This document shows, in pieces, positions 1 to 16,779 of a stretch of DNA of 64,000 nt; the first letter of the stretch is position 1; every line of letters begins with the position of its first letter. Under the pieces are notes generated by a model. That model searched no databases. It was not told where the DNA came from and worked only from the letters and a program-made list of their open reading frames with translations. Source of the DNA: Hyphomicrobiales bacterium (GTDB lineage Bacteria > Pseudomonadota > Alphaproteobacteria > Rhizobiales > Methyloligellaceae); NCBI GenBank assembly GCA_003135455.1, contig PLBV01000125.1:16458-80457 (forward strand). The letters run 5' to 3'. The translations under genes and the position numbers were made by a program.

Positions 1-2
1 TT

Positions 3-379: not shown

Positions 380-412
380 GCCAAGCCCACCCGCCGGCGC
401 CACCATCTCGTC

Positions 413-560
413 ATGGCGAAGGCGCCCACCAAATCCGGACATGTGCGCGTCGGCATCGGCGGCTGGACCTATCCGCCGTGGCGGGGGACGTTCTATCCAA
501 GGGTCTCCCCCAAGCTCAAGAGCTCGGCTATGCCGGCACCAAGCTCACCTCCATTGAAAT
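413..560 (+). pseudogene. DUF72/YecE family gene, 5' fragment, split by the integrated element and carrying a 1-nt frameshift near 499
   Basis: MAKAPTKSGHVRVGIGGWTYPPWRGTFYP, then in a shifted frame KGLPQAQELGYAGTKLTSIEI; continues as LTSIEINATFYR at 16018. Confidence 0.9.
544..560 (+). repeat. attL core CTCACCTCCATTGAAAT
   Basis: 15/17 match to 16018-16034; first 11 bp identical. Confidence 0.88.
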
Positions 561-625
561 TTTTGAGGGCTCAGCGAAATGCTAACTGCCTAGACAACAA
601 GGCGTTTCCGAGTTCAGGCGCTGGA

Positions 626-647
626 CGCTTTAAAACCGCTTTAGAAA
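626..647 (+). promoter_or_regulatory. Probable integrase arm-type sites (tandem CGCTTTAAAAC / CGCTTTAGAAA)
   Basis: CTTTAAAACCGCTTTA (628-643) recurs exactly at 15881-15896 near the other end. Confidence 0.7.
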
Positions 648-791
648 CATCGCGGGTTCATTGTCCTATTTAATTGGGCCGTAGGGATTGAAAATCATTG
701 TCCGCATTTTTATAATCCTGGGGATCGCGGAAATCCGTCAGCGCACTAGCGCAGGAGACCGAAAGCGAGGTTTTGCACTCGTGGAGGTCTC

Positions 792-1079
792 ATGGCAGCG
801 AAATTCCCTTCAATCAAATTGGTGCGGCAACCCGAGGTCTGTGAGGCACTCGGCATTGTTCGCATAACGCTTGACCGCTGGGTGCGAGGTGGGGCGTTCC
901 CAGCGCCGATCCGCATCTCCGAGAAGACCTACGCTTGGCGCCTGGCCGACGTCGAGGCCTGGATCGCGCAACGCTCGCGCTCGAGGAAGAGACGCAAGCC
1001 GCGCGGTTCACTCATGCAAGGCGACGAGCTTGTAGTCATGTCCCCAAAGCTGACGAAGGGGAGGACGGCTCATGCTTGA
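792..1079 (+). CDS. AlpA-family HTH regulator/excisionase
   Basis: LVRQPEVCEALGIVRITLDRWVRGGAFPAPIRISEKTYAWRLADVEAWI; GGAGG RBS; next to att. Confidence 0.9.
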   Translation: MAAKFPSIKLVRQPEVCEALGIVRITLDRWVRGGAFPAPIRISEKTYAWRLADVEAWIAQRSRSRKRRKPRGSLMQGDELVVMSPKLTKGRTAHA

Positions 1080-1290
1080 GCGCCCGATTAGGGGGCCTCG
1101 GTCACCCGTCCGATCCGGGCTCGCTGCCCCTCGGGGCTGTTATGGGACCGGCGACGGCCTCAGCGGCTCTCCGGGCCTTGGGACGGGGCTGGAGAAAGCC
1201 CACAGCGAACATGGGAGAAGGCCCGACGATGCGGATGCCCAACAATTGTTGGGCACCCACATGGGCGTGAGCCGCTTATGTTGAGATAAG

Positions 1291-1396
1291 AAGAACCCCG
1301 CCGGTTATGGAGCGGCGGGGCCTTCAATTTGGTGCAATGGTGGTGAAACAATTGCAATGAGGCAAATAACAGCACCTCCCGACAATTGCAATCCCC
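1291..1396 (-). ncRNA. Candidate small RNA unit A (promoter-like TTGCAA-N17-TATTTG plus terminal hairpin)
   Basis: Hairpin 1296-1320; motif set shared with 4065-4201. Confidence 0.35.
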
Positions 1397-1812
1397 GTTG
1401 CGCCCTGCATCATAGCCAGCGCACTGAGCGCTCCGGGCCGAGGGGCTATCCAGGCCATCGTCGGATCCCCGGATCAACCGCCGGAGGGCACCGGCATCAG
1501 CAAAGCTGGGCGAGATCGGTCCCATCCCGACTTATAGCCCGCATGGAGAGGGTTTGGGGAGCGCGAATGCTTCATCCCTCATGGCCCGGCGATTGCCAGA
1601 AGCTTGCCGGATCACCAACCGCGACACACTCAAAGAGCGCAGGGGCAACACGGTCGCCTGTCCCACTGAGCAGCCACTAGGCTGTCATTGATCGCTCTGA
1701 CTTCTGGATGCGTGACGGCCGAGGGGTCATAGCGCTGTGGTCCTAAGCAGGACCACATGCGATCAAACCTCAGGATCATGGTTGGTTGCATAGACAATGT
1801 CATTGCAGGTCC

Positions 1813-1849
1813 TGGGCAGAGGTACAGCTAGACATGGGCAGAGGTACAG
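1813..1849 (+). repeat. Two exact 15-bp direct repeats TGGGCAGAGGTACAG at 22-bp period (iteron-like)
   Basis: Copies at 1813-1827 and 1835-1849; partial GACAGAGGT copy near 1885. Confidence 0.6.
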
Positions 1850-1926
1850 TTGGGGTAGATAGAGAGAATGGTGGTGATACGTCGGACAGAGGTGGGTTTT
1901 GAAATGACAAGTTAGGTTTGGTTGCA

Positions 1927-2283
1927 ATGACAGAGCACCGCCCTTCCACCCATAACGTAATTAGGACACTTGTGCTCCTGCATCCCACCATCTCAACGGA
2001 CGAATTGCAGCATGAGCTGCACGGTTTGGGTATCAACCTGTCCAAATTTGCGGTTGGCCAATTCAAACGCTCCTTCCTGGACGTTCTCCGTTTGCTCCGA
2101 GGATTTGACCTCCTCAGGGACAAACAGCCTCGTGTTCCCGCTTGGTTGAAGCAGCACCGACGAGAACGGCTCAAATTTGAGACAGTCCCCGAGGCACGGA
2201 GGCAACAACCGCGCGAAGAGCCACAACCAAAGCGGTTCAAGCCGTGGAAATCGACGTACAAGAAATGGCACTTTCCTGGCTAG
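1927..2283 (+). CDS. Hypothetical protein, possible HTH-like DNA-binding
   Basis: ISTDELQHELHGLGINLSKFAVGQFKR resembles an HTH pattern; basic C-terminus. Confidence 0.5.
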   Translation: MTEHRPSTHNVIRTLVLLHPTISTDELQHELHGLGINLSKFAVGQFKRSFLDVLRLLRGFDLLRDKQPRVPAWLKQHRRERLKFETVPEARRQQPREEPQPKRFKPWKSTYKKWHFPG

Positions 2284-2384
2284 ATGCCAGTTTGCTGCTC
2301 TCCCCATCCCTCGCTGCAAAATTGTTTAGTGAGACAAAAGTAGTAGGACTATGAATTCAGGTTGTTCCGTGCTTCCAGGGGCGG

Positions 2385-3326
2385 ATGTTAATGCCAGTTC
2401 CCGACTATCAATCCCTAATGCTGCCCGTCCTCAAACTTGCGGCGCAAGGCGAAACGCGCGTGCCGGACACTGAGGAGAAGCTAGCGAGTGAGTTTGGATT
2501 GACCCCGGAGGAGCGTGACCAGCTCCTGCCCAGCGGACGCCAAAGGGTGCTTCACAACCGCATCCATTGGGCAAAGTTTTACATGGTGAGGGCTGGTCTA
2601 ATTGATCAGCCTCGACGTGGGCGGTTTGTGGCAAGCCAGGAGGGGCGCGCCCTGCTCGCTCGAAATCCGGAAAAGATCAACGTCGATCTGCTGCTGGAAT
2701 ACCCTTCATTCTGCGAATGGTATCGCGGCGACAATGTCAACGACGCAGGGACAGGAGTGGCCGATCAAGAAGGAACTTCCGTTGGCCCACCGGCGCCCAA
2801 AACTCCGGAGGAACAGATAGAGAGCGCCCACTTAGCACTCCACGCGGCATTACGTGAGGAGCTCCTGCAACGCATGTTCCAGAATAGCTCCGGCTTTTTT
2901 GAGCAAGTAATCGTGGAGCTTTTAGTTGCGATGGGCTACGGCGGCTCCCTTCGCAATGCGGCGGCTCAACTTGGACGTTCAGGCGACGGCGGTGTTGATG
3001 GGGTAATCAACGAAGACCGGCTAGGCCTTGATCGCGTGTACGTGCAGGCCAAACGTTACGCGACGACACATTCGGTTGGCCGTCCGGATGTTCAGGGCTT
3101 CGTTGGCAGCCTTGTCGGGCTTGGCGCAACGAAAGGAGTGTTCGTGACAACTTCATCCTTTAGCCACCAGGCGCTTGAATTCGTGCGACACCTTTCTCAG
3201 CGCGTCATTCTGATCGATGGGCAAAGGCTTGCTGACCTCATGATCGAGCACAATGTAGGCGTGCGGCTCAATCGGGCGATTGAGTTCAAGCGTCTCGATG
3301 AGGATTTTTTTGCTCAGGACGACTGA
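2385..3326 (+). CDS. mrr: Mrr-family type IV restriction endonuclease
   Basis: N-terminal PDYQSLMLPVL...NRIHWAKFYM domain; catalytic GDGGVDG...VQAKRY...KGVFVTTS...LIDG. Confidence 0.95.
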   Translation: MLMPVPDYQSLMLPVLKLAAQGETRVPDTEEKLASEFGLTPEERDQLLPSGRQRVLHNRIHWAKFYMVRAGLIDQPRRGRFVASQEGRALLARNPEKINVDLLLEYPSFCEWYRGDNVNDAGTGVADQEGTSVGPPAPKTPEEQIESAHLALHAALREELLQRMFQNSSGFFEQVIVELLVAMGYGGSLRNAAAQLGRSGDGGVDGVINEDRLGLDRVYVQAKRYATTHSVGRPDVQGFVGSLVGLGATKGVFVTTSSFSHQALEFVRHLSQRVILIDGQRLADLMIEHNVGVRLNRAIEFKRLDEDFFAQDD

Positions 3327-3560
3327 AACATGAAGGACTTCGTCACTGCTTTACGTTCAGGAACAATAGCGCCCATCCCGGAAAGGCCCCCATCACGGGT
3401 GAGAACCTGTATTCGTTCTATTCGGACATAACGCAGATAGTACACAAAAATCCCAAGTTCGCTTTGCCTCTCTGAAGGCCGTCTCCATCTCGAGGGATGG
3501 ACAGATTGCTGCCCAGCCGCCCATCATCCCGTGCCCGATCCCCATTCTTGGAGAGAGCAC

Positions 3561-3953
3561 ATGCAGGAAAGGGCGACGCCGGTACCGATATGCCCGCCAA
3601 GAGAAGTCATCTATCTCAATCTCAATCTCGGCCCCCACATCATCTACGTCGATGTTCGGAACGACCCCAGGCCAACCCATTTGCGTTCTATGTGCCGTCA
3701 GATCCCGAAAGGATCAGGCGCATGGCGCGTCACGGACACATTCAAGAAGCAAGGGAACGGGCACAGCTTGAACGGCTCAGCCTCACTGGCACGGCAAGAA
3801 TGGAGAAGCGCAATCGCTGAACGTCTCCGTGCCCTCGGCCTATTAGAGAGACAAGTCGCGGCGCACATCGCCAACATCCCCATCTGCAAGCCACCCAAAC
3901 GAACCTACCCGTTCGAGACTGACGCCGAGGCCGACGCCTGGCTCACATTCTGA
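3561..3953 (+). CDS. Hypothetical protein
   Basis: ORF with GGAG-type RBS before ATG 3561; no recognised motif. Confidence 0.45.
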   Translation: MQERATPVPICPPREVIYLNLNLGPHIIYVDVRNDPRPTHLRSMCRQIPKGSGAWRVTDTFKKQGNGHSLNGSASLARQEWRSAIAERLRALGLLERQVAAHIANIPICKPPKRTYPFETDAEADAWLTF

Positions 3954-4064
3954 CCGCCCGAGGCCCCCATGTCATGTCCCTGAGAGCCTCTTGTCATATC
4001 GCAGGTCCCATTACAGCCCAGGACCGTTCCCGCCCCGGAACGGACGTCCTACCGGGGCTGTGAA

Positions 4065-4102
4065 ACAACAAAAGGCCCCGCCGACTGGAACGGCAGGGCC
4101 TT
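4065..4102 (-). terminator. Intrinsic terminator on the minus strand
   Basis: AAGGCCCCGCCG-loop-CGGCAGGGCCTT preceded on + by AAACAACAAA (U-rich tail on minus). Confidence 0.7.
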
Positions 4103-4222
4103 CGGTTTGGTGAACCACGTTGTGTGTGCAATCCGAAAGCCTTGTTGGGCACGAATTGCGGAAGAGACATTTTGGAGATCACTCGGGCAATTGCAATCCC
4201 CAGCGATCAGGAGTTTCAAAGC

Positions 4223-4651
4223 TCAACGCCTCTTAGGTCCGAAGCCTCCACCAACCAACTTGTCTCTCTCAGCCTGCTTCTTGGCTGTTTCCTTTGCGGC
4301 CTTCCGAAGCCACACAGCGTCAAGCTCCTCAATCCTTTTGCGGCCAACTGGGTCCTTGACGAAGCGAATGAAATTTAGAGGCCTCGGACCAAGTTCGCGA
4401 GGCATGGTCGTCCGGAACGAAATGAAGATTTCCTTGGGCGGCTTCTTCCATTTCGGAGGACGGTTCACAAGCACCTGATCTGGGAAGTCAACTGGGAGAG
4501 CAAAGCGGCAAGTGAAGATGTCGGCCGCAAGACGCTCAGCCTGCTCAGGGTCAAGCCAAGCCTCAAATACCCTGTCCTCATTTTCGAGGGTCAGGCAAAC
4601 ACGGCCCTTGCCCTTGCCCTTCCTTACCGTCACCTGTTTGAGCCGCTTCAT
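4223..4651 (-). CDS. Hypothetical basic protein
   Basis: 142-aa ORF; ATGA overlap with the upstream 46-aa ORF. Confidence 0.55.
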   Translation of the reverse strand: MKRLKQVTVRKGKGKGRVCLTLENEDRVFEAWLDPEQAERLAADIFTCRFALPVDFPDQVLVNRPPKWKKPPKEIFISFRTTMPRELGPRPLNFIRFVKDPVGRKRIEELDAVWLRKAAKETAKKQAERDKLVGGGFGPKRR

Positions 4652-4788
4652 AGCTGGCCCTTGCCCTCAGCCAAAAACCTATCTAGCACCTCGAGGCTGC
4701 GATGACCGGAAAGGGCATCATCGTCGAAACTAGCCACAGGCTGGCCCTCGATGTAATTCATTTCCCTTGGCCCGGCAAAGGCCTTCAT
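4648..4788 (-). CDS. Small hypothetical protein (46 aa)
   Basis: MKAFAGPREMNYIEGQPVASFDDDALSGHRSLEVLDRFLAEGKGQL; ATGA overlaps at both ends. Confidence 0.4.
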   Translation of the reverse strand: MKAFAGPREMNYIEGQPVASFDDDALSGHRSLEVLDRFLAEGKGQL

Positions 4789-5219
4789 GGACCAACGATG
4801 ACGTGCAGCGTGCAAGCTACTCCCAACATAGAGCACAAGGATCCCATTGAGGTTGTACCCGTGGCTGCATCACCCGAAAGCACTGTCCAGTGATAGAGTT
4901 TCGCCGCCGCAATAACTCGGATCTTCGACGATATGGCTTGCAGGCGATCCACGCTGGTTGGACAAAGCTCAATCAGTGCCCCAGCAACGTTCTCAAACTC
5001 ATCGTTCTCTTCGACATATTGAGGGTCAATACCGCGCAGCTGCTTGTACTCGGCGCCGTCCAGGTCTCGTAGTTCGTGGAGCGTGGCCCGAATAAACCGG
5101 AGTTGGCCAGCTGCTACTGCGGCGAAAAAGATTGGCCGAAGCGGATTTCCTGCTGGCGCGCAACAGCACAGGCAGGCTTCACAGTCAGGAACGTATACGG
5201 TCCCATTATCCAGAGGCAT
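4785..5219 (-). CDS. DUF4411-like PIN-fold protein (degenerate)
   Basis: VYVPD...GQLRFIRATLHEL...RVIAAAKLYHWTVLSGD...LCSMLGVAC pattern; overlaps the ImmA gene, the usual partner. Confidence 0.6.
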   Translation of the reverse strand: MPLDNGTVYVPDCEACLCCCAPAGNPLRPIFFAAVAAGQLRFIRATLHELRDLDGAEYKQLRGIDPQYVEENDEFENVAGALIELCPTSVDRLQAISSKIRVIAAAKLYHWTVLSGDAATGTTSMGSLCSMLGVACTLHVIVGP

Positions 5220-6363
5220 CGAGAGCCTCGGGAAAACGCTTTCTCGCAGCGATCTCTGTCTGCTCTAGCCATTTGGGTTTAAGTCGGGTGAACCGATAAA
5301 CGTCGATCTTGGAGAGCAGATTGTTTCTTACTGCCTCACCGATGACGATGGGCAAAAGATAACCGTAACGCGCTATGTGCCTTGTAACGACAGACGCACG
5401 GCGTATTTCTTGTTCGTCCTGTGGTTCATCCTCCGGGCTAGGGAGATTTCGACCCCGCATTCGGGCGAGCCAAGCTCCGTAGAAATCATTTATTAGTCCC
5501 AGCTCCGCTATTCGAATTGCCGTCGCTTGCTTGCTGATTTTGAACCTGTCGGAAAGCGAACTCACGAGAGTGAGGTAATCGTCACCAGCTTCTTGTAGTG
5601 CCTTCACAAACTCGGTTCGAAAAACGTCAGCAGGCATGATGACGTTTACTGTCACCTGATTACAAAACCGCTCGAGATTGTTTGTTAGGATGAAAGGATC
5701 CGAAACGCCCTCGGCTCTCAAGAGCGCGTGCACCAATTCATGGACCAGCGTGAAATTTTTAGTTTTGACCGTCTGTCCCCACGTGTTGATGAATATGAAA
5801 GGAGAGCTACTGCCCTTGGCTAGGCAGAAGCCCCGGAATGTCTCGTCCTTCACGCTTTCACATAGAACGGGGACGCCAAGCTGCTCTATCCTGGCCCGCA
5901 AATAGCGGAACGTCGTCAGTGGACCTTCGATGCTCTTGATCTTGGAAAAATCGAGAAGGTGGGAGACCGCGTCCGTGGCTGCCTGCACGCTGGTGTCGAG
6001 GGAAATACGAGGCGTGGCTTTCGGTTCCCTGCTGGGGGCGAGCTCAGAAAGCAAACTCCTGATCTGATGCGCTTGCTCTACGCGCCATGCTCCGCGTCTG
6101 CCGATTTTTGCCGGAGCATTGTTGGGAGTGCGAAAGTCGGGTAAGGGGACGGGAAGCGTCAGCTGCTTTGTGAAAAACACCTCCCTTGGAACGACATAGG
6201 CATCAGCGAGCTCCTTGAGCTCACCTGCCTTCGCGGGTTCACCTCCCTCTAATTCACGAAGCCTCTTTAGAGAAATTCGCGTCAGAGCAGCCGCGTCTTC
6301 GATGGTGAGTGCGCGGCTTTCCCTTGCCGATACAAGGGAACGCGGATTAGGAGTGTATTTCAT
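5206..6363 (-). CDS. XRE-HTH + ImmA/IrrE (M78) metallopeptidase
   Basis: N-terminal HTH (ARESRALTIEDAA...LRELEGG), PDFR motif, FTLVHELVH (HExxH), ERFCN. Confidence 0.9.
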   Translation of the reverse strand: MKYTPNPRSLVSARESRALTIEDAAALTRISLKRLRELEGGEPAKAGELKELADAYVVPREVFFTKQLTLPVPLPDFRTPNNAPAKIGRRGAWRVEQAHQIRSLLSELAPSREPKATPRISLDTSVQAATDAVSHLLDFSKIKSIEGPLTTFRYLRARIEQLGVPVLCESVKDETFRGFCLAKGSSSPFIFINTWGQTVKTKNFTLVHELVHALLRAEGVSDPFILTNNLERFCNQVTVNVIMPADVFRTEFVKALQEAGDDYLTLVSSLSDRFKISKQATAIRIAELGLINDFYGAWLARMRGRNLPSPEDEPQDEQEIRRASVVTRHIARYGYLLPIVIGEAVRNNLLSKIDVYRFTRLKPKWLEQTEIAARKRFPEALDASG

Positions 6364-6375
6364 GAGAAAAGCGCG

Positions 6376-6873
6376 TTGAGCTGGACTATGGACTGCCCGA
6401 AACTAGCCGATTTCAACAGTGTTATGCAGATCGGCTTTGCCATGAGTTTTGCGTTCTCAATCCTACGCGATTTTGTCTTGCGCGAGAGCAGCGAAAAGGA
6501 TCGACGTCTAGGATCCTTATTGCAGCTGGCCGTCACCATCCCTGATCCACAACGCAAACAAGAGTTCTTATCGGAGGCAAAAGGAATAAGGTCGCAAATC
6601 AGAATTGTTGATAAATCCCTGGAGCACCTCGGCACGATTTTCCTATTGCTATTAATTTCGAGTGCTTCTGCCTGCCTGCTGTTCCTCATAATTGCCGGCT
6701 TCAGCTCACGTGTTTGCGAACCTACCGTGAATATCATACTCGCCTTGGTACTATGCCTTGCACCTTCGCCTGTTCTTTTCAGCATTTTCTACATCGTGGT
6801 CACAGGCCGGTATAGGGACGTACAGGGGCGAATGGCTGCCATGGCAGCCGACTACCTCAACATCCAAATATGA
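6376..6873 (+). CDS. Hypothetical membrane protein
   Basis: About three hydrophobic segments; AT-rich; start uncertain (6376/6388/6424). Confidence 0.6.
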   Translation: MSWTMDCPKLADFNSVMQIGFAMSFAFSILRDFVLRESSEKDRRLGSLLQLAVTIPDPQRKQEFLSEAKGIRSQIRIVDKSLEHLGTIFLLLLISSASACLLFLIIAGFSSRVCEPTVNIILALVLCLAPSPVLFSIFYIVVTGRYRDVQGRMAAMAADYLNIQI

Positions 6874-7081
6874 TTTAGCGAAGTCCATCCCAAGCCCAAA
6901 GCCCAAACAAGCAGGTTTAAGTTCAGCAGGACATGCTGCGGAGATGCATGCCCCCTGCATGGCCAAATCTCGCGGTTGTTTTCACACCTAGTGAGAGACA
7001 GGCAGAGCGCAATCCCTTCCCCAGGAAGGGCAAGGCAAAACCTTCTACCTGATCCTGTAGACCTCCTGCAAATTGCAGGGG

Positions 7082-7555
7082 ATGAAAACGCACAATCAAC
7101 GCGGGCTCAAAAGGGCCAGGAACAAGGCCACTCAAAGCACCAAGCTGTACGGCAAACAGCTTTGCGGAAGGAGCAAGATCACCAACGGTAGCACGCTGTT
7201 GCCGTCAATTGATGGTCGCTCCATCTGGGCCAGGCGCCTCCGTGACCTGATCAGCCTGCACACCTCTGACCTCGGTGGCCTGGACAACCTCAGTCAGGCC
7301 GAACTCAGCCTGATCCGCAGGGCCGCAACCCTGACGGTTGAGCTTGAGCACCTCGAGATGCGGTTCGCACTGGCGGAGGACGGTGCCGAGGAGGGCCAGC
7401 TCAAGACGTACCAAATGACGGTCAACACCCTGAGGCGCACGCTTGAAGCACTGGGCTTGAAGAGACGAGCCAGAGACATCACGCCGAGCTTGGCCGAGTA
7501 CACGCGGATCAAGGCGCGTGAGAAGGCTGAGGCTGTGGAGGCAGAGGCCACATGA
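7082..7555 (+). CDS. Putative terminase small subunit-like protein
   Basis: Helical 157-aa protein (DGRSIWARR...LIRRAATL...LRRTLEALGL) upstream of terL; role inferred from position and size. Confidence 0.55.
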   Translation: MKTHNQRGLKRARNKATQSTKLYGKQLCGRSKITNGSTLLPSIDGRSIWARRLRDLISLHTSDLGGLDNLSQAELSLIRRAATLTVELEHLEMRFALAEDGAEEGQLKTYQMTVNTLRRTLEALGLKRRARDITPSLAEYTRIKAREKAEAVEAEAT

Positions 7556-7708
7556 GTACCCGGGGTATTCGACGAAGGCTGGAAATTCAGGAGAGGGTGG
7601 GGAGGCAAGCATGCACAGCAGGTTGTTGGTTGGAACGGGGGGTGGTCGATTTGGAAGGCAGGATGAGTGTTCTGAAAAATTTCTTAGAACCCAGGATGCG
7701 CAAGGGAC

Positions 7709-8017
7709 ATGAGTGCCACCGCCACTGACCTGTTGACCTTTGTCCGGGATATGGAACGTCAGCAAGTCTCTCCATTCAAATACGAGGATAAGCGTCTATG
7801 GGCTTTGGGATGCAGCATGCGGGAGGCTGCTCTTGCGGACGACGTTGTATCCGTTGCTGAGCACATCCGAGTGACACGCCTCGAACGGCTGTGGCGCATT
7901 GAGAATTGGCTGATGTTCCGCGAGCAGCGGCATCCGAAGATCGAGGCCTGGCTTCACACCCTGCTTGTTGAGATTGGGTGGCGGAGACCACTCCAAAATT
8001 CCGGAGTGGTCTCATGA
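7709..8017 (+). CDS. Hypothetical protein
   Basis: 102-aa ORF with ATGA overlap onto the terL start. Confidence 0.5.
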   Translation: MSATATDLLTFVRDMERQQVSPFKYEDKRLWALGCSMREAALADDVVSVAEHIRVTRLERLWRIENWLMFREQRHPKIEAWLHTLLVEIGWRRPLQNSGVVS

Positions 8018-9525
8018 CCACGTTCATTCCTATCGATGCCGCTTTACAGGACCCAAAGCTTTTGGGTGCTGCTCTTGGTCCCACCGAAACTTGGGGGACA
8101 TGGCTGACGGCCTTGAAGGCTGGCTTCGGCCTCCCATTGTCTCCCGACGAACGGAAGACCTTCGAGGAGATTGCCGGTTCAAGAGAGCCACCTACGCACA
8201 AGGTTGAGCAGTTGTGGGCGATTGCAGGGCGCGGTTCCGGCAAGAGCCGCATAGCCGCCGCTACCGCGGTCTATGTCGCGTGCTTTGCTCAGCACGATCT
8301 CGACCCTGGCGAAATTGGTTACGTGCTCGTGATCGCGGCATCGAGGGATCAGGCCAACGCGGTGTTTAGCTACGCCGAGGCGTTCCTTCGCTCATCCCCC
8401 ATCCTGCGAAAAATGGTTGAGGCCGAGACGGCCAACGAGATCAGGCTGACCAACGGCGTAACCATTGCGGTCCACACGAATTCGTTCAGGTTGCTCCGTG
8501 GCCGGACGTTGCTGGCTTGCATTTTTGACGAAGCCGCTTATTGGCGCGACGACACCTCGGCCAATCCCGATATAGAGGTCTACCGCGCGGTGCGGCCGTC
8601 TCTCGCCCGTACGGGTGGGATGCTGATTGGCATTAGCAGCCCCTATCGTCGCTCCGGCCTCCTCTATGCCAAGTACAAGGATTTCTACGCCGCCAGCGAT
8701 GACACGGTGCTTGTCGTTCAGGGCGCAACGGCTGTCTTCAACCCGACGATCAGCAAAGCCACCATCGCCAAAGAAATGCTGGACGATCCCGAGGCAGCCC
8801 GCTCGGAGTGGGGTGCCGAGTTTCGCACCGACGTCACGGCGCTGCTGGACGATGCGGTCATTGAAGCCGCGATCGACAATGCGCGCCCGCTTGAACTGCC
8901 CCCGCGTCCCGACCGGCGCTACTTCGCTTTCACCGATGCAAGCGCGGGACGCCACGATGCCTTCACGCTTTGCATCGGTCACCTTGAGGGCGAGAGCTGG
9001 GTTGCTGATGTTGTTCGTGGGCGGTTGGCTCCATTTGAGCCACGCTCGGTAGCGCACGAATATGCAACGCTCGCGCAGTCCTACCACTGCCGCAAAATCG
9101 TAGGCGATGCTTTTGCGGGGGAATGGGTGAGCGCCGCGTTCCGTGACGCTGGCATCCAGTACGAGACGAGCCCGCTGGTCAAGTCGCAGTTGTATTTGGA
9201 AGCGTTACCCAGCTTCAATCGTGGTGCCGTCGCGATCCCGAACCACGACAGGCTCTTGCGCGAACTACGTGGCCTGGAGCGCCGTGTCCACCGCTCGGGC
9301 AAAGATAGCGTCGATCACCCTGCACACGGTTCCGATGACTTCGCCAACGCCGTTTGCGGCGCGCTCTACATCTCGGTGCACGATCAGCGCAAGAAGAAAA
9401 TGAAAGTGGGCACCATCGATGTGCATGGCTTCGTCCATTGGCACGACGCGGAGCGAGAGCACTCGCGTGTCAGGGTGGCTCACGTAAGCGAGGCCGAGTG
9501 GCTCAAACAGAAGGAGAGCATCTGA
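8014..9525 (+). CDS. Phage terminase large subunit
   Basis: Walker A AGRGSGKS, Walker B CIFDEAA, motif III ISSP, nuclease FTDASAG...HGSDDFANA. Confidence 0.88.
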   Translation: MTTFIPIDAALQDPKLLGAALGPTETWGTWLTALKAGFGLPLSPDERKTFEEIAGSREPPTHKVEQLWAIAGRGSGKSRIAAATAVYVACFAQHDLDPGEIGYVLVIAASRDQANAVFSYAEAFLRSSPILRKMVEAETANEIRLTNGVTIAVHTNSFRLLRGRTLLACIFDEAAYWRDDTSANPDIEVYRAVRPSLARTGGMLIGISSPYRRSGLLYAKYKDFYAASDDTVLVVQGATAVFNPTISKATIAKEMLDDPEAARSEWGAEFRTDVTALLDDAVIEAAIDNARPLELPPRPDRRYFAFTDASAGRHDAFTLCIGHLEGESWVADVVRGRLAPFEPRSVAHEYATLAQSYHCRKIVGDAFAGEWVSAAFRDAGIQYETSPLVKSQLYLEALPSFNRGAVAIPNHDRLLRELRGLERRVHRSGKDSVDHPAHGSDDFANAVCGALYISVHDQRKKKMKVGTIDVHGFVHWHDAEREHSRVRVAHVSEAEWLKQKESI

Positions 9526-9526
9526 C

Positions 9527-10216
9527 ATGGACGACAAGACATTTTCCGATCTCACAATCAAGGCGATGATCTGCCCAAAGCAGGCGAGCTGGCCCGCGCC
9601 GGAACATTCGCATTGGCAACGACTGCACGAGGCCGCTGATACCGCGCGGCAGTCTGTGTCCACTGCCTACTCCCTGATGGCAACGATCGACGCCGACGCC
9701 AGCCTTTCTAAGGAGGGCAGGGCGCAGCATCGTCAGACCATTGCGAAGCAGGCGCTTGCCGAGATCGAGAAGTCGAAGGCGCTAATTAAAGCGCGTGACG
9801 CGGTGGGCGTGTGTCAACAGCAGTGGGCCAAGAAGGTTGGCGAGAGCATCAAGCCCGCCTCGGACATTCACACGGCGACCGTGGCAGCACAGATCCGCGA
9901 CCGCATAGCTGCCATGCAGGGCAGCGCTAGAATGGGCTGGCTAGAAAAGCATTCCAGCGATCCCACCATTGCCTCGGCCATTCTGACGGCACCCCTAGTA
10001 CTGTCTGGTCTCACCGATGTCGAGCTCGCATTGGTCAAGGCCAAGGCCGAGCGAGCAGCGCTTTCTCCCGAGGTTGCTGAAGCCAAGGACGCTGCTGAGA
10101 AGGCCCTCGATCAGGCTGAGCGCGGCTGGCGACAGGCAATCAATGCCATTGGCGCAAGGGCAGGGCTGAGCAAAGGCGCTGACGGTACCTGGAGCGAGGC
10201 CGCCCATTACGATTGA
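9527..10216 (+). CDS. Hypothetical all-helical protein
   Basis: 229 aa, Ala/Glu/Lys-rich; starts immediately after the terL stop; GGAG RBS. Confidence 0.75.
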   Translation: MDDKTFSDLTIKAMICPKQASWPAPEHSHWQRLHEAADTARQSVSTAYSLMATIDADASLSKEGRAQHRQTIAKQALAEIEKSKALIKARDAVGVCQQQWAKKVGESIKPASDIHTATVAAQIRDRIAAMQGSARMGWLEKHSSDPTIASAILTAPLVLSGLTDVELALVKAKAERAALSPEVAEAKDAAEKALDQAERGWRQAINAIGARAGLSKGADGTWSEAAHYD

Positions 10217-10381
10217 TTTCATTGGATTATTTCTAGCTTTTTTAGATTGACCCCCGACCTGACACCGACGATCTAGACTGCCCGCTCTCAAGCCGACCGG
10301 CAGGCGCAGCGCGGAATGATGCGGCCCGCGCGCTTGGCGATGGGTTGAGCCGCTGCAATTCCCGGCAGGTACGGCCCCCGT

Positions 10382-10735
10382 CTAGTCCACCATCAGAACT
10401 TCAGTGCCGGGGTCAGCTACTAAGGGCCCGGAGGGGTTCATGAGGTAGCCGCGCGCTCCCAAGCATGATGTAAAGACGGGGCGGCTAACGACCATTCTGC
10501 TAATGGATTGCCCTGAACCTTGATATACGGCCGCGGCTGATCGATTTTGCTGCGCTTGCTGAATGCAGGCGAACCGGTCTTGCATGAAGGTTTGTTGGTT
10601 TGCTCCCATTTTTGAAAAGCGCGCCGGAGGGGGCGGCGGGTGAGCGCAGCCGCTCAGCAGCATTGCACAAGTAGCAGTTAAGAACCCCAACGCGACGCAA
10701 AGCCCGCGCATGGCTAACTTCCCCCAAAGCCGCAA
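10382..10735 (-). CDS. Putative lipoprotein
   Basis: Lipobox LLSGC; FMQDRFAC...FTSCLGARGY Cys pair. Confidence 0.7.
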   Translation of the reverse strand: MRLWGKLAMRGLCVALGFLTATCAMLLSGCAHPPPPPARFSKMGANQQTFMQDRFACIQQAQQNRSAAAVYQGSGQSISRMVVSRPVFTSCLGARGYLMNPSGPLVADPGTEVLMVD

Positions 10736-10830
10736 ACCAACCTAGTATGCTACCATTGCGCGAGCAAGCGCGTCAGACCCCCAAGGGTTCTCCGGGGCGG
10801 ACGCCATGCGGGTTCACGAGGGGGCGAAAC

Positions 10831-11400
10831 ATGACAGGCTCCGCATCGCGCGTAAGCCGTGGCTTCCACCGGCTTGGGCTTTTATTGGCGGCTATCCCAT
10901 TGGTGGTCGGAGTGTGCTTCATCGGCTACTTGGTCTGGGACACATTTTGGAGCGCACGGGACACCTATGACAAAATGGCGGCGGAGGCCTGCGCCAAAGC
11001 AAAGTTTGCGACGATGCGGAACCTGCCTCCTCCCCAACAGGATTTAACCGACCAACTCCCGCCATATGCCAAGTCACTCTCTGATTATCTGATCAGCTAC
11101 GATCTCAAGGAGCTCGGCTGCTCCGACGTATATCGCTTGGTCTCCAAGTCCGAGATAATGACGGCAAGCGATGAAGGACACGTCGGCTCCTTTTGGGACT
11201 ACTATGCCAGCAGCCTTCCGCAACTCGTCAGCTGGGTTTTCCTAAGGGCGTTTGCAGTCAGCGTGGCCGTCTATGGCGTGGTCCGCGCGATAGGCTGGGT
11301 AGCTTTATTAGTTAGGGGCAAGCCGAGGGCGAGACCCGGTCGCCGAGAAGGCAATTCATTTTCGGTCGAGCCTCTCGACTGCCACGACCAACGCGAATAG
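10831..11400 (+). CDS. Hypothetical two-TM membrane protein
   Basis: RGFHRLGLLLAAIPLVVG...AVSVAVYGVVRAIGWV; the tail after ~11300 looks non-native. Confidence 0.65.
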   Translation: MTGSASRVSRGFHRLGLLLAAIPLVVGVCFIGYLVWDTFWSARDTYDKMAAEACAKAKFATMRNLPPPQQDLTDQLPPYAKSLSDYLISYDLKELGCSDVYRLVSKSEIMTASDEGHVGSFWDYYASSLPQLVSWVFLRAFAVSVAVYGVVRAIGWVALLVRGKPRARPGRREGNSFSVEPLDCHDQRE

Positions 11401-11457
11401 CTGAACAATTACGATGGCCAGCTCGATCTCCATTATCATCGGTCCGTCTAGCGTCAT
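11356..11457 (-). CDS. Small single-TM peptide (33 aa), below the ORF-track cutoff
   Basis: MTLDGPMIMEIELAIVIVQLFALVVAVERLDRK*, with GGAGG 9 nt upstream of the ATG. Confidence 0.5.
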   Translation of the reverse strand: MTLDGPMIMEIELAIVIVQLFALVVAVERLDRK

Positions 11458-11487
11458 CGCCGAAGCCTCCCACCCCTGATTGAAGTT

Positions 11488-12042
11488 TCAAACGCCCCAA
11501 GGAACCCGCCAAGGATCAGTCGGATCGTCACTGTCCGGGAATTGGTCCTTTCGGCGTTGTAGCTCGCGCCACACAAACTCGGGCACTATGTAAACGAAAT
11601 TCAGTAGAGTGGCGATCTGAGCTGGCCTTGCGACCAGCTGCTTGGCAATTAGAGTGTTGGCGTAGCCCCCGGTCTCAGTCGCAACGAAGCTGCGTTCGTT
11701 GGTTGCGAGCAGCCGGCCGAAGATCTCCTTCTCCTTGAGCGATAGCGTCTCAAGGTGGCGCAGAATGTAGCGGCGCTGCCTGCGGACGTTCCAGACCTCA
11801 CGCAAATACCCGGCAAGGGCCTGAAGGCCTCTGAACGTGGCCGCGATAAGGTCAAAGAGCGCTACGGCTCCGAACCCTATCGTGGCCAAGCCGGTTGCCG
11901 TGAGCAGCAGGGCTGGGATTTCGAATGGCAATAAGGCTTTGCTGCGGAGAACAAAAACCGCCACGCCTCCTGCGGCGATGGCGGCAGCACGCCAAGAGCT
12001 GACTTTGAAAGCTGACGCCAGCCAGCCCCACCACTCAGTCAT
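11488..12042 (-). CDS. Superinfection exclusion protein B (SieB)-like
   Basis: Two N-terminal TMs, then LETLSLKEKEIF...ANTLIAKQLV...YIVPEFVW, the typical SieB layout. Confidence 0.7.
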   Translation of the reverse strand: MTEWWGWLASAFKVSSWRAAAIAAGGVAVFVLRSKALLPFEIPALLLTATGLATIGFGAVALFDLIAATFRGLQALAGYLREVWNVRRQRRYILRHLETLSLKEKEIFGRLLATNERSFVATETGGYANTLIAKQLVARPAQIATLLNFVYIVPEFVWRELQRRKDQFPDSDDPTDPWRVPWGV

Positions 12043-12084
12043 CCGCTCGACCGCCTCGACTGCTGCCCCGCCCTGGCGCAAGGG

Positions 12085-12891
12085 TCACTTCGGCTTCCAC
12101 TCCCGTGCCTGCCTTTGCGCCTCGGCTAGCTGCTCTGGCGTCATCTTGGAAGCGACGAAGTCACGCGCCTTAGCCGCCCTGTCCTGGTCCTTTGCCTCTG
12201 AATACCGCGCAGCTGCAAGATTGAACCACATATGCGCCTGCACATAGTCCTGCGGGACGCCTTGGCCCATTAGGTACATGCTGCCGAGATTGACCTGGGC
12301 GTCGGCGTCGCCCTGCTCGGCGGCGAGGCGATACCACTTCACCGCCTCCGCATAGTCCTGCGGGACGCCGTGGCCAATCTCATGCATGGAGCCAAGATTG
12401 GACTGTGCAAAGGCATTGCCCTGTTCGGCAGCGAGGCGATACCACTTCACCGCCTCCGCATAGTCCTGCGGGACGCCTTCGCCATTAACGTAAGAGGCGC
12501 CGAGATCGTTTTGGGCTTGGGCATTGCCCTGCTCGGCAGCGAGGCGGTACCACTTCACCGCCTCGGCATGGTCCTGCGGGACGCCTTCGCCCTTGGCGTA
12601 CAGGAAGCCGAGATCGTGCTGGGCGGAGGCGTTGCCCTGTTCGGCAGCGAGGCGGTACCACTTCACCGCCTCGGCATGGTCCTGCGGGACGCCTTCGCCC
12701 TTGGCGTACAGGAAGCCGAGATTGAACTGGGCGTCGGCGTCGCCCTGCTCGGCCAGCGGTCGTAACAACCGCAGCGCCGCCGCATAGTCGCCGCGCTCGT
12801 GAGCGGCAGAGGCATCCTCAAATGGCCCAGCCACCGCTCCGCCCGTCAACATCAAGGCGAGAACTACACCGGCCAGGATACGCTTCAGCAT
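12085..12891 (-). CDS. Sel1-repeat protein with signal peptide
   Basis: Repeats of AQxxLGxxYxxGEGVPQDxAEAVKWYRLAAEQG; C-terminal AHMWFNLAA...MTPEQLAEAQ. Confidence 0.95.
   Translation of the reverse strand: MLKRILAGVVLALMLTGGAVAGPFEDASAAHERGDYAAALRLLRPLAEQGDADAQFNLGFLYAKGEGVPQDHAEAVKWYRLAAEQGNASAQHDLGFLYAKGEGVPQDHAEAVKWYRLAAEQGNAQAQNDLGASYVNGEGVPQDYAEAVKWYRLAAEQGNAFAQSNLGSMHEIGHGVPQDYAEAVKWYRLAAEQGDADAQVNLGSMYLMGQGVPQDYVQAHMWFNLAAARYSEAKDQDRAAKARDFVASKMTPEQLAEAQRQAREWKPK
12244..12740. repeat. 108-bp tandem coding repeats of the Sel1 units
   Basis: CACTTCACCGCCTC recurs at about 12335, 12443, 12551 and 12659. Confidence 0.85.
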
Positions 12892-13350
12892 GGCGGAGGA
12901 CCCTCTATCCCAACACCCTGCCTCTCAGAGGCCATATAGAGCAAGGGACCCTTGGGTCGTTGCCTCCACTCTTTTAAGGGAGGCGGCGATCATCTTGGTC
13001 ATCGAGGGTGCGCGGGCCTTCGCATGTGTAGATCAGCATGGGCGACATTCTAGGCGAGGTCGTCATTGGAGCAAGCGCGGCGTGCTTCGCTCTCGGCGGG
13101 TTCTTCCCCGCAGGATGTCTTTGCAGGGGCGGAAGCCTTTTAGGGGCTGTATGGGGTAGGGGTAGGACCTTAGCCCTCTCCCGGGACATGTGACAGGGCT
13201 CCCCAGGGCTCAAAAACGATTTTGACCGCCCCAGACCCCATCTCATGTCCGATCCGGCCCGTACATCGGGGGAGCCCCTGTCAGTGCCCCGAGGTGCTGA
13301 AGCGCCTCAAACGACATGTGACCGAGGCCACCACGGCTCAGGGAGGGGGG

Positions 13351-13382
13351 TTGACCCGGGACCGCATGTTCGCTATTCGTTC
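13351..13382 (+). promoter_or_regulatory. sigma70-like promoter overlapped by an alphaproteobacterial LexA box
   Basis: TTGACC (13351)-N17-TATTCG; GTTC-gctattc-GTTC at 13368-13382. Confidence 0.65.
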
Positions 13383-13407
13383 TCCATACTTTATGGAGTT
13401 CAAGACA

Positions 13408-13611
13408 ATGCCTAATGATAAGACGCGGAACGCTTTAGCAGTGGGTGGAGCACTCGCCCTTGGCCTCACCTTTGTGAGCTTGGGATCGGATGTCGCCTGC
13501 CACATGCACAGCCCGGTGTGCGACTACTCATCCCTGGGCGTCCGCATCACCGCGACGACGAGCACGGCCGTGGTGCCACAGACCCCGGCCGTCGTCACCA
13601 TGTCGAGCTAG
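13408..13611 (+). CDS. Small exported/membrane protein (67 aa)
   Basis: GGAG RBS; MPNDKTRNALAVGGALALGLTFVSLGSDVACHMHSPVC... Confidence 0.5.
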   Translation: MPNDKTRNALAVGGALALGLTFVSLGSDVACHMHSPVCDYSSLGVRITATTSTAVVPQTPAVVTMSS

Positions 13612-13622
13612 GTCATTGCCCT

Positions 13623-13644
13623 GCTGATAATCGCGATTATCAGC
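13623..13644. repeat. Perfect 22-bp palindrome GCTGATAATCGCGATTATCAGC
   Basis: Self-complementary across all 22 positions. Confidence 0.85.
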
Positions 13645-13783
13645 GCATGCCGGGAAGCGAACGACCTTCGCTTCGTCGGGGTGAAATATCCGATCAAACT
13701 CCGCCGGGGACAGCACGAGGCGACGTGATCGGGGCACATCGGCGCGGACACCACGCCGCCCCTCGATACGGCGAGTGTGCTTC

Positions 13784-14506
13784 TTATGCCAACTTCAGCC
13801 ATGCCACGATCAGACCGCCAACTACGGCCCCAATGACGCCGATGACGAAGAACTGGAAGGTCCTGTCCCGCCACTCTGCTGCCGTTTGACCAAGCTCCGC
13901 TGACTTCCCGATCTCGACAGTCAGTCGCGGGTACATCCTCTTGATGCTGTAGGTCGCTAGCCAGGCAATCGCAAGTATCTCAACACCGGCGAGACTGACC
14001 CACAGACCCTGTAACTGCTGGTTCGCGAACGGAGTGAACTCGGTTTGCAAAGTCAGCAACAAAAGGTACAGCACGAGGAGCAAGACGCCCTTGACGAATA
14101 AGAGGACCTTGGAGTCCCACAACTCCCTAACCCACGAGAATGACTGGACCTGCCCATCTATCAAGTCTTCAAGTGCGGCCCGAACTCTCACGCAGTCATC
14201 CTTCGTTCCGCTCACCCTTAGCTCAACGGCCTTGCTTGTGATCGCTAGGGTGAGTGCCTTCGTCGGATTTGTGTCCGTTTGAGCTCCCTCTATCTTGACG
14301 TCGTTGATCAGCTTGCTCTTGAGATAGATGTCATCGAGTATCTCCTGCGGGTTCGCGCCCTGGATGCTGCTGTTGTCCGTGAGCATGATGGACAGGTCGG
14401 GTCGCTTCCCCAGGAACTGCTGCGCCGCGTTCCAACACTCGAGAATGGCCTCCTTGTCGAACAAGTAGCAGCGCGATTTCTTGATTAAGGAAGAATAGCT
14501 TGCCAT
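13784..14506 (-). CDS. Hypothetical protein, soluble N-domain plus three C-terminal TMs
   Basis: 240-aa ORF directly downstream of the integrase. Confidence 0.75.
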   Translation of the reverse strand: MASYSSLIKKSRCYLFDKEAILECWNAAQQFLGKRPDLSIMLTDNSSIQGANPQEILDDIYLKSKLINDVKIEGAQTDTNPTKALTLAITSKAVELRVSGTKDDCVRVRAALEDLIDGQVQSFSWVRELWDSKVLLFVKGVLLLVLYLLLLTLQTEFTPFANQQLQGLWVSLAGVEILAIAWLATYSIKRMYPRLTVEIGKSAELGQTAAEWRDRTFQFFVIGVIGAVVGGLIVAWLKLA

Positions 14507-14581
14507 GGCATCCCCCAGGGGCCTGGCGCAACCTTTAGCGAGAAACGCTGCTCTCTGGAAGGGTGTCCCGTTATCCCCGGC

Positions 14582-15862
14582 TCATCGCAGCGCCGTCACG
14601 CCCTCGGGCACGACCAGGCCCTCGACATGACCGGCCCATTTCTCCATCGCCTCGCTCTTCTCGTCCCGGTACTCCCAGTGATCGTAGTCCTTGCCCGATC
14701 CTCGAGTTGGAGCGTGATCGAGCAATAGATCGCGCACATGCGGTGGCACTCGAAGCTCGGCGAGACGTGTCTCGACCGTGTGCCTGATTGCGTGCGGGAA
14801 GAAGTCTTCGATGCCCGTCAGCTTTTGCACCCTGCCCTGCAAGCGCGAGGCGACGTGCATGACACCATTCTTGCCGCCTTGCGGTGATGGGAACACCTGA
14901 TTGTCGGCCTTCACGTCCTTCGGCTTCAACCCGATCAAAATACGCTGCGCCAATTTCGGCAGCGGCAACGGATGCACACGCTTGTTCTTGTTGCCAGGGG
15001 GTGGCGTCCAGTCCCATGCGTCATTGATCTCACCCCATCGCATTGCGGCCAGTGCCCCTTTGCGCTTACCGGTGAGAATGAGCAGCTTGAGGAATGCGGC
15101 CTCGTTCGGCTCCAGCTTGCAATGCCACAGCTGCTTGAGTTCGTCGTCGGAGAATACGCGTGTGCGAGGCTCGGCACCTTCCCATGGCCGATCAATCGAG
15201 ACCATCGGTGATGCTGCGAGCTTCCGCTTCTTCACGCACCACCTGAACAGCGATCCGAGGTAGCCCCACAGCTTGTTCGCTAGATACGGACGGCCGCGGT
15301 GCTCCGCGTCTCCGTCTCTGATCCGCTCCAGCAGCTTCTCGATCTCGGCGGGGCGGATGGAGGCAATGGGACGTGACTTGAAGGCGGCACAATCTTTCAA
15401 TAGGGCGCGCCTGACCTCCTTCGCCGTAGCATTGCGCTTACGGCCGATCTGCTCCCGTTCGACGTACTCGTTGACGACATCCTCAAACGCATCGGACGCG
15501 ACACGCTCCTCACTCTTGGGATCAATGCCCTGCGCTGCCGCCTTTTGATCAGCGAGGCATAGCTTACGGGCCTCCTCAAGATCGAGGACGCCAACACGCC
15601 CGAGGCTGCGGCTGTGGGGCTTCGAGCTGCCAGCGTAGTACCAGAGCGAGCGATAGGTGCGCGTGCCCTTCTTGTTGACCAACACGTGCAGGCCCTTCAC
15701 GCCCTTGTCCCATACGAAGTACTGCTTGTTGCGATTGCACTCGAGGTGCTGCGCGATCTCCTCGGTGAGGAGCTTGTGTTGGCGCTTGCCGGGTGCCTTC
15801 CGCGTGGCTGTCGTGCCGTCCTGCTTTGTGTAGGTGATGCGCTTGCGCTTTGGCTCGGTCAT
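14582..15862 (-). CDS. Tyrosine recombinase/integrase with arm-binding N-domain
   Basis: VWDKGVKGLHVLV arm domain; LTGKRKG (R), HAIRHT (HxxR), LLDH, DYDH (Y); AGGAG RBS before ATG 15862. Confidence 0.95.
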   Translation of the reverse strand: MTEPKRKRITYTKQDGTTATRKAPGKRQHKLLTEEIAQHLECNRNKQYFVWDKGVKGLHVLVNKKGTRTYRSLWYYAGSSKPHSRSLGRVGVLDLEEARKLCLADQKAAAQGIDPKSEERVASDAFEDVVNEYVEREQIGRKRNATAKEVRRALLKDCAAFKSRPIASIRPAEIEKLLERIRDGDAEHRGRPYLANKLWGYLGSLFRWCVKKRKLAASPMVSIDRPWEGAEPRTRVFSDDELKQLWHCKLEPNEAAFLKLLILTGKRKGALAAMRWGEINDAWDWTPPPGNKNKRVHPLPLPKLAQRILIGLKPKDVKADNQVFPSPQGGKNGVMHVASRLQGRVQKLTGIEDFFPHAIRHTVETRLAELRVPPHVRDLLLDHAPTRGSGKDYDHWEYRDEKSEAMEKWAGHVEGLVVPEGVTALR

Positions 15863-15880
15863 CAGTGCCACTCCTAAATC

Positions 15881-15900
15881 CTTTAAAACCGCTTTAAAAT
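15881..15900 (+). promoter_or_regulatory. Probable integrase arm-type sites (CTTTAAAACCGCTTTAAAAT)
   Basis: Matches 628-643; lies next to the integrase RBS. Confidence 0.7.
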
Positions 15901-16005
15901 TAACCCCCAATATATATGTCCGCAATTGATCCGCCAAGTGCCCGCAATTGTTTATTTTCCAGTGTCAGATCAACTTCTTAACCCCCCGCAACCCCTTGCA
16001 TTCCG

Positions 16006-16704
16006 GTGGTCGGACACCTCACCTCCATCGAGATCAACGCCACCTTCTATCGGCTGCAGACGGCCGCAAGCTTCCGCAAATGGGCCGATGCGGTGCCGGA
16101 CGGCTTCGTCTTCTCCGTGAAAGCCCCGCGCCTCGTCACCCATCGCCGGGTGCTGGCCGAGAGCCTGACCGCCATGCAGCGTTTTCTCCAGTCGGGAGTG
16201 CTCGAGCTCGGGGACCGGCTGGGGCCGATCCTCTGGCAGCTCGCGGCCACCAAGCAATTCGAGGAGGCGGACTTCGGAAACTTCCTCGAACGCTTGCCGC
16301 AATGGCTCGACGGACAGCCGCTTCGCCACGTCGTCGAGGTGAGCCATGAGAGCTTCCGCGATCCGGCCTTCATTCGCCTGCTGCGGGACTTTGGCGTGGC
16401 CGCAGCGTATTTGGAAAACGATGCCTCCCCCGCAATCGCCGATCTGACCGCCGATTTCGTCTATGCGCGCTTGCAGAAGGGAAAGGACACCATCGAGACC
16501 GGCTACAGCCCGCGCGATCTCGACGCTCTCGCGGAGCGGGCGCGCATCTGGGCCGCGGGCGGCGAGCCCGATGACCTTCCCCACGTGGACGCCGCGCATA
16601 AGGCCGCTCGGCAGCCTCGCGACGTCTTCATCTATTTCATCCGCGAAGGGAAGCTGCGAGCCCCGGCAGCGGCGGCAGAGCTGATCGAGCGGCTGGAAGC
16701 CTGA
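16006..16704 (+). pseudogene. DUF72/YecE family gene, 3' part (N-terminally truncated)
   Basis: SIEINATFYR...FSVKAPRLVTH...LGPILWQL...HVVEVSHESF...FVYARL...VFIYF; the first four codons come from the element. Confidence 0.9.
16018..16034 (+). repeat. attR core CTCACCTCCATCGAGAT
   Basis: Direct repeat of 544-560. Confidence 0.88.
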
Positions 16705-16753
16705 TCCGGAAAAGTGGAAATCGGTTTTCCGATAAGATCATGCGCCAACAAAA
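16702..16753 (+). repeat. Hyphomicrobiales intergenic palindromic repeat
   Basis: TGATCCGGAAAAGTGGAAATCGGTTTTCCGATAAGATCATGC; inverted related copy at ~29184-29232. Confidence 0.8.
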
Positions 16754-16779
16754 GCCTGGTGGATGGTGGGCCGGCCTAG

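Follow-up and report, generated by a model that had tools for sequence, protein, structure and literature searches.

The stretch of DNA analysed here (the window: 64,000 nucleotides of a Hyphomicrobiales bacterium of the Methyloligellaceae, assembly GCA_003135455.1, contig PLBV01000125.1, positions 16,458 to 80,457) carries a 15.5-kb island at 544-16034, integrated in the genome of a peat bacterium. This element is real and mobile, and it belongs to a widespread family of satellite-like islands outside the described classes. It encodes a tyrosine integrase, AlpA, a predicted small terminase subunit (TerS), a large terminase subunit (TerL) and an all-helical protein that we call HEL. Our preferred reading, to which we give somewhat better than even chances, is that the family consists of satellites that bring their own TerS-TerL motor to fill the proheads of a helper phage. 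The case for a satellite is built on an att-bounded insertion with empty sites, an intact integrase, AlpA and TerL, the lack of a portal or capsid gene in 20 relatives, and purifying selection.

The ends of the element are marked by a 17-bp att sequence, CTCACCTCCATYGARAT, with exactly two copies in the window: attL at 544-560 and attR at 16018-16034, both on the plus strand, sharing an identical 11-bp core and four of the six bases that follow it. Two matches were reached in 0 of 100 shuffles of the window; the pattern was derived from both copies, and the test thus excludes only a third one. A host DUF72 gene, which lies immediately downstream of groEL, is split by the insertion. Of this gene, the 5′ part (413..554, plus strand, with a 1-nt frameshift near 498 in the assembly) stops at ...GTKLTSI, and the 3′ part, which follows attR and matches DUF72 in Pfam at 2.6e-52, continues ...LTSIEINATFY. 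A genome of the same genus (L184) has a continuous DUF72 gene at an uninterrupted site. No tRNA gene was found in the window. The GC content is 0.58 in the element vs 0.66 in the right flank. A 16-bp direct repeat just inside the ends (628..643, plus strand, with its twin at 15881-15896), present in two copies genome-wide, is a candidate integrase arm site.

Four peat metagenome assemblies (runs X1-X4) were aligned onto positions 1-17500 of the window; the assembly may stem from X1 and X2, and X3 comes from a second study. Contigs of X2, X3 and X4 begin or end at 525/554 and at 16018/16047, and such branching at the 11-bp core is the pattern expected for a mixture of occupied and empty alleles. 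In X2 the flanking contigs have depths of 11-17 and most element contigs 7-8, while X1 contigs pass unbroken through both element ends. Empty-site genomes therefore likely coexist with occupied ones in peat metagenomes. An extra base at window position 498 in run X2 restores the DUF72 frame; it is not seen in X1, X3 or X4.

The mobility genes are intact. AlpA/excisionase (792..1079, plus strand; PF05930 at 1.2e-8, phrog_66) lies downstream of a consensus match to a sigma-70-like promoter (688..716, plus strand; TTGAAA-17-TATAAT, 11/12), and the arm-binding tyrosine integrase (14582..15862, minus strand; phrog_1 at 1e-47) retains R267, H357-x-x-R360, H383 and Y393. An earlier, sequence-only reading of this DNA had described an att-bounded element with an intact integrase and AlpA, and the two att copies, the conserved R-H-R-H-Y residues and the PF05930 match bear this out. 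It had also recognised no portal, capsid, tail or Rep/primase gene, and indeed Pfam and PHROG scans of 27 ORFs matched no portal, capsid, tail or primase family. The head, tail and lysis modules of an intact prophage are lacking, and the two ends set the unit at 15.5 kb.

The packaging genes form a co-oriented cassette, again as first described. TerL (8014..9525, plus strand; phrog_2 at 7e-28) has an intact Walker A motif (GRGSGKSR), the Walker B DE and the nuclease aspartates, and it weakly matches a solved terminase nuclease domain. It is overlapped at an ATGA by a 102-aa ORF (7709..8017, plus strand) from a small family with 16 homologues at 48-67% identity; this ORF is absent from the related loci clustered and lies outside the conserved core. 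The product of 7082..7555 (plus strand, 157 aa) is TerS by prediction, with an HK97/P27-like helical core, and the evidence for it is at the level of structure. The ORF has no Pfam or PHROG match, none of 41 family members scanned against PHROG matched a family, and PDB sequence searches with the TerS and HEL profiles returned nothing significant. The model (pLDDT 85) aligns to the HK97 small terminase 8pop (Z 8.6, rmsd 2.6, 82 residues aligned), which ranks second in a tie with unrelated helical hairpins. P27-type TerS proteins dominate the top of its BFVD list at weak E values (0.05-0.6), and its top ESM Atlas match is a TerS cluster (0.96). In 75 of the 83 loci with enough sequence, a TerS homologue stands upstream of TerL at a distance of at most 2.5 kb.

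Of 7997 candidates scored, 1245 are relatives of the window TerL at E<=1e-20. Only four weak matches were found in 50,697 phage records, and this TerL is nearly absent from cultured phages; five plasmid records matched as well. We fetched 52 genome loci (GTDB), 80 of 312 metagenome loci, 17 IMG/VR loci (11 plus 6 new) and 14 same-genus regions (three duplicates were dropped), and called their genes with a hexamer model of our own. A direct repeat encloses int and terL in 20 of the 52 genome loci, 17 of them at tRNA ends; three of these repeats are just 17-20 bp long. The bounded relatives measure 7.9-17.7 kb (median 10.5 kb) and carry TerS in every case, full-length TerL in 18 and HEL in eight. 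Among their proteins of at least 85 aa, with two IS transposases left out, there was no match to a portal or major capsid PHROG in any of the 20. Typically, int and alpA are followed by a replication gene (primase/helicase or Rep), then by terS and terL, between one and four variable genes, and the cargo. Among the metagenome loci, 113 of the 127 proteins downstream of TerL were scanned and gave no capsid and one portal. The layout of int, alpA, terS, terL and, in part, a helical protein thus recurs among TerL homologues that lack a capsid, a recurrence for which the sequence-only reading had asked for a test. The results that would have spoken against that reading did not turn up: none of the 20 bounded relatives has a portal or capsid, and HEL does not fold as an HK97 capsid or portal. 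Bounded hosts include Alpha- and Gammaproteobacteria and Myxococcota, unbounded loci extend to Planctomycetota and Acidobacteriota, and additional bounded elements are present in the same genus and order. A distinct, recurring architecture therefore holds up, and its restriction to Alphaproteobacteria does not.

Several members of the family show features of their own. The Methylobacterium and Komagataeibacter plasmids L001 and L002 carry a primase, a serine recombinase, TerS and TerL followed by HEL or DUF2213, with no capsid annotated. On the capsid-less contig L231 (6234-8600) a gene for a single-subunit, T7/N4-like RNA polymerase stands immediately upstream of terS-terL. The TerL proteins of L036, L038, L042 and L052 reach 640-700 aa through C-terminal extensions of 200-250 residues, some of which resemble a second nuclease-like domain. 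Capsid-less members with tail-tip or baseplate-hub-like genes occur at L006 (12644-15909) and L031 (3944-8281).

TerL is under purifying selection. Across 98 full-length TerL proteins from loci in which no portal was seen, many of them on short contigs, the Walker A lysine, the Walker B DE and four aspartates of the nuclease are retained in 93-98. TerL dN/dS is 0.11-0.32 across 13 pairs from such loci. For TerS it is 0.18-0.32 in five of seven measurable pairs and 0.51 and 0.91 in the other two, which are at low identity; for HEL it is 0.26-0.51. The Mesorhizobium pair L021/L022, inserted at different tRNA genes and diverged to a dS of 0.48, has the same capsid-less content, with dN/dS of 0.14 for TerL, 0.25 for TerS and 0.26 for HEL.

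HEL (9527..10216, plus strand, 229 aa) directly follows TerL and belongs to a large family: at E<=0.001 its profile matches 4530 clusters, at 1e-10 it matches 2103, and the family has no Pfam name. The model (pLDDT 94) shows a bundle of three helices into which a helical domain is inserted. Fold searches returned generic helical bundles, with the P4 proteins Sid and Psu not listed among the top matches, and profile comparison by hhalign gave no match of HEL to either. We rejected HEL as an HK97 capsid or portal on its fold, which differs. A complex prediction of TerL residues 1-475 with HEL scored 0.01, and a search of viral contigs with the single HEL protein gave no match.

HEL follows TerL in 17 of the 57 loci having 2.5 kb downstream. 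In 401 genomes of the order, a search with HEL only gave 19 matches, the window's own genome included. Seventeen regions were fetched, and 13 remained after two with weak matches (L226, L227) and two with no HEL gene called (L223, L225) were set aside. In these, HEL follows the window TerL family four times (L211, L212, L215, L218) and unrelated TerL types three times (L219/L224, whose terminase pair has a phrog_309 TerS, and L216), while six have no TerL (L213, L214, L217, L220-L222). No portal or capsid was found among the 79 proteins scanned of 134 listed neighbours. The HEL family thus marks capsid-less islands, and it travels with this terminase pair and with two unrelated ones. Since HEL is kept while the terminase is swapped, it may act on the borrowed head rather than on a particular TerL.

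The islands in which HEL follows unrelated terminase pairs (L219, 5556-8122; L224, 9678-12316; L216, 7640-10420) are tRNA-integrated or tRNA-adjacent, and L216 has a tail-fibre gene in addition. L217 (8739-12920) and L222 (8610-12835) are int-alpA-primase-HEL elements with no TerL; the former has a possible TerS after HEL, and the latter measures 6.2 kb between repeats. In other members of the family the HEL slot holds scaffold- or protease-like genes (phrog_6216/DUF2213, phrog_24785, phrog_206), tape-measure and neck genes or tail pieces, and such virion-assembly genes recur singly or in twos per member. A second coiled-coil group after TerL was considered as a single family and rejected, as its members failed to align as one.

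In the window copy, alpA lies at the left end and the integrase, convergent to it, at the right end; this arrangement is the rarer one and is shared by L009, L171 and L177. In L171 and L177 a gene of 289 or 304 aa follows alpA; in this slot the window has about 840 bp (1080..1917) without a convincing ORF. From this comparison, 1080-1917 is likely the site of a lost replication gene. Loss is the most likely account of the missing primase because L171 and L177 hold a gene in the slot and L074, the closest TerL neighbour, has a primase/helicase. Neither tblastn of the element with proteins from 146 related loci nor six-frame phmmer found a primase remnant. Four other intact bounded elements are also without a recognisable replication gene, so a Rep of unrecognised type or replication in trans is possible. 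The window copy is probably replication-defective. A missing primase, which the sequence-only reading had included in its definition of the class, is no family trait: L074 and 15 of the 20 bounded relatives have a PHROG replication protein (primase, helicase or Rep). Given the replication genes and host range of the relatives, we dropped the absence of a primase and the restriction to Alphaproteobacteria from the definition of the class.

The slot proteins of L171 (6429-7298) and L177 (6134-7048) are 34% identical to each other, match no family and are candidates for a new Rep. Within the window, 1805-1890 is purine-rich and contains a 14-bp direct repeat, GGGCAGAGGTACAG, twice; it may be a remnant of an origin.

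We envisage the following cycle. Helper infection would derepress alpA, and Int together with AlpA would excise the element. In typical members, the primase-helicase or Rep would then produce concatemers. The element's TerS would recognise its own packaging site, and its TerL, docked on the helper portal, would cut and pump the DNA, so that neither terminase subunit of the helper would be needed. HEL would act on the helper head as a scaffold, in size control or as a portal-side adaptor, and members without HEL may use what stands in its slot instead, genes resembling those for scaffold, protease, neck or tape measure. The window copy would need replication in trans, or may persist mainly as an island with Mrr cargo. 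It is tempting to extend this to a very large undescribed class with swappable TerS-TerL, in which HEL, with its thousands of relatives, remodels or couples foreign proheads and permits docking on portals that have not coevolved with the motor. We regard this extension as conceivable, at somewhat less than even chances. If it is true, such a class may be one of the most common kinds of satellite in bacteria of soil and peat.

Several observations weigh against a family of working satellites. TerL-portal docking is normally cognate-specific. The TerS assignment is built on weak structural scores. No circle, virion or helper was seen: contigs of the four runs, which drop rare forms, contain no attP joint from right end to left end, no circular relative was found, none of nine contigs checked has a terminal repeat, and no capsid or portal family was found in the host assembly (G000, 84% complete), in which search the phrog_146 control had no match anywhere. 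TerL dN/dS lies above that of two phage pairs (0.06-0.08). In trees made with FastTree, which gives local support only (in the second of them, two long outgroups and the metagenome rows L099-L146 were omitted), the window TerL clade has 39 rows and a support of 100. It includes L228, which has an HK97 capsid, a protease, a neck and a tape-measure gene and no portal, and L004, which has a portal and no capsid. More distant TerL relatives, at 36-44% identity, adjoin portals on phage-like contigs (L057-L063, L065, L066, L229). Together these loci indicate that a reductive series from phages exists. A TerL match was found in 21 of 90 genomes of the same genus, with about seven near full-length and open and the rest fragments, so decay is common there.

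These points could be taken to mean that the elements are decayed prophages, or elements like the chromosomal islands that are phage-inducible and capsid-forming (cf-PICIs), after piecemeal loss of head and tail genes, with terS-terL a leftover and the window copy inert. The relatives with a single capsid (L228) or a single portal (L004, L063, L229), the scattered tape-measure, neck and scaffold genes, the many TerL fragments in the genus and the window copy's missing replication gene are all what such decay would leave. We nevertheless consider it unlikely, since the family's att-bounded units are compact (8-18 kb), keep one gene order in different phyla and lack a capsid in 20 of 20, TerL is intact in 18 of the 20 and constrained, L021 and L022 have kept the same capsid-less content at different tRNA genes, and HEL recurs with unrelated terminases. 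Two side observations concern the loci with head genes. L228 (1-16179, an IMG/VR contig with int, TerS and TerL) may be a portal-borrowing variant; a search seeded with its capsid found no others like it among 3021 locus proteins. In L004 (11443-15285), a portal gene (phrog_145) comes after TerL-HEL, together with a short gene that resembles a tape measure.

Alternatively, TerS-TerL, with or without HEL, may be kept mainly as weapons that jam helper proheads or cut the concatemers of incoming phages and so protect the host, the element moving by other means or via the helper terminase. Satellites do target packaging: the satellite PLE is described as both inhibiting and using the helper TerL, with Gpi as the inhibitor (PMC11417361, in the part of the text accessible). 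The Mrr defence cargo and the conserved nuclease residues would suit this role. The ATPase motifs are conserved like the nuclease ones, though, and the co-inheritance of TerS in 75 of 83 loci fits a working motor. Typical members also have int and replication genes, like satellites; we think the idea improbable. We give a low probability to a further proposal, that the motor loads a carrier other than a tailed phage, such as host gene-transfer-agent (GTA) heads, encapsulin-like shells or vesicles. The few loci in viral databases (17 vs 312 in whole metagenomes) and the lack of a capsid or portal family in the host assembly would be expected of it. IMG/VR, however, selects against capsid-less contigs, and tailed phages are indicated by the tape-measure, neck and scaffold genes that recur. 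The capacity of known GTA heads in Alphaproteobacteria is about 4-5 kb, below the 8-18 kb of the elements, and we rejected such heads as the carrier on size.

The satellite family with its own motor resembles several known classes in part. With Gram-negative PICIs (PMC10085698, as far as its accessible text goes) the element shares an integrase with att sites, an AlpA-type regulator, a small terminase (at the level of structure only) and defence cargo, and the family shares att sites at tRNAs or in genes, a size near 10 kb and, in the relatives, a primase-replicase. Unlike PICIs, which use the helper TerL, it has its own TerL and HEL and no homologue of a capsid-morphogenesis gene, a gene that is optional outside Enterobacteria; the window copy also lacks a primase-replicase. 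Like the cf-PICI EcCIEDL933, it combines int-alpA-rep with its own TerS and TerL in about 15 kb; cf-PICIs encode capsid and portal too (bioRxiv 10.1101/2022.09.08.507074, from the portion available), whereas the element is without a major capsid, portal, protease, head-tail connectors or HNH of its own. Mycolicibacterium EPIPs are likewise small satellites, with TerS, scaffold and tape-measure genes as in some of our relatives, but in the available text of their description (PMC12822802) they have a serine integrase, an actinobacterial host and no TerL listed. P4-like satellites and PLE are similar in having a conserved protein, all-helical and with a possible action on the helper head; terminase genes are absent from P4, and the element has no Sid/Psu, delta or alpha primase. 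Marine integrative mobile elements encapsidated in virions (VEIMEs) and PICI-like tycheposons share the integrase, AlpA, primase, some TerS and some alphaproteobacterial hosts, but in the accessible parts of those reports (PMC9618062, 10.1101/2020.12.28.424599) they are described with a TerS or capsid gene and a TerL presumed to come from the helper. PICMIs have no packaging genes (PMC11389934, accessible portion), in contrast to the TerS and TerL found here. The accessible text of PMC11389934, of PMC13669383 and of a haloarchaeal satellite preprint describes no such class, and we found no description of a satellite with TerS and TerL but without capsid and portal in the literature searched, which covers neither papers behind a subscription nor the supplements on bioRxiv.

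Satellites described so far either use the helper TerL (PICI, P4, PLE, PICMI) or build a whole head (cf-PICI), so that an own motor with a borrowed head is the missing case. The family makes it testable how strictly TerL is matched to the portal. In the SatelliteFinder model, terL is the component that separates cf-PICI from PICI (PMC10085698, accessible text). Current detectors take terL as a cf-PICI marker and would miss these elements or file them as defective prophages, although traces occur in about a quarter of the genomes of the genus. Intact copies in cultured carriers make experiments feasible: Mesorhizobium (L021, L006), Phenylobacterium (L019), Marinobacter (L030), Aquibium (L013) and Wenzhouxiangella (L035). 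HEL, moreover, is a large family without an assigned function.

The element carries further genes. An Mrr type IV restriction endonuclease (2385..3326, plus strand; PF04471 at 4e-34, PADLOC mREase_IV at 1e-103) is a clear defence gene, and the anti-phage cargo of the sequence-only reading is confirmed to that extent and not for the rest. A regulator with a helix-turn-helix and an ImmA/IrrE metallopeptidase domain (5206..6363, minus strand; PF06114 at 3e-13) resembles RmrA (PADLOC, 7e-15); no partner toxin was identified for it. A 121-aa ORF (1918..2283, plus strand) has a homologue in the same position in L171 (tblastn E 1e-10), and a 161-aa membrane protein (6388..6873, plus strand) is without a family in the Pfam and PHROG scans. 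Variable cargo at 10382..14506 comprises a lipoprotein-like ORF, three membrane proteins, a Sel1-repeat protein (12085-12891) and others without a family. Outside the element, downstream of DUF72, the short sequence at 16698-16753 stands out in all four runs by its many loose ends and a summed depth that is very high; this is a multi-copy, REP-like repeat common to many contigs.

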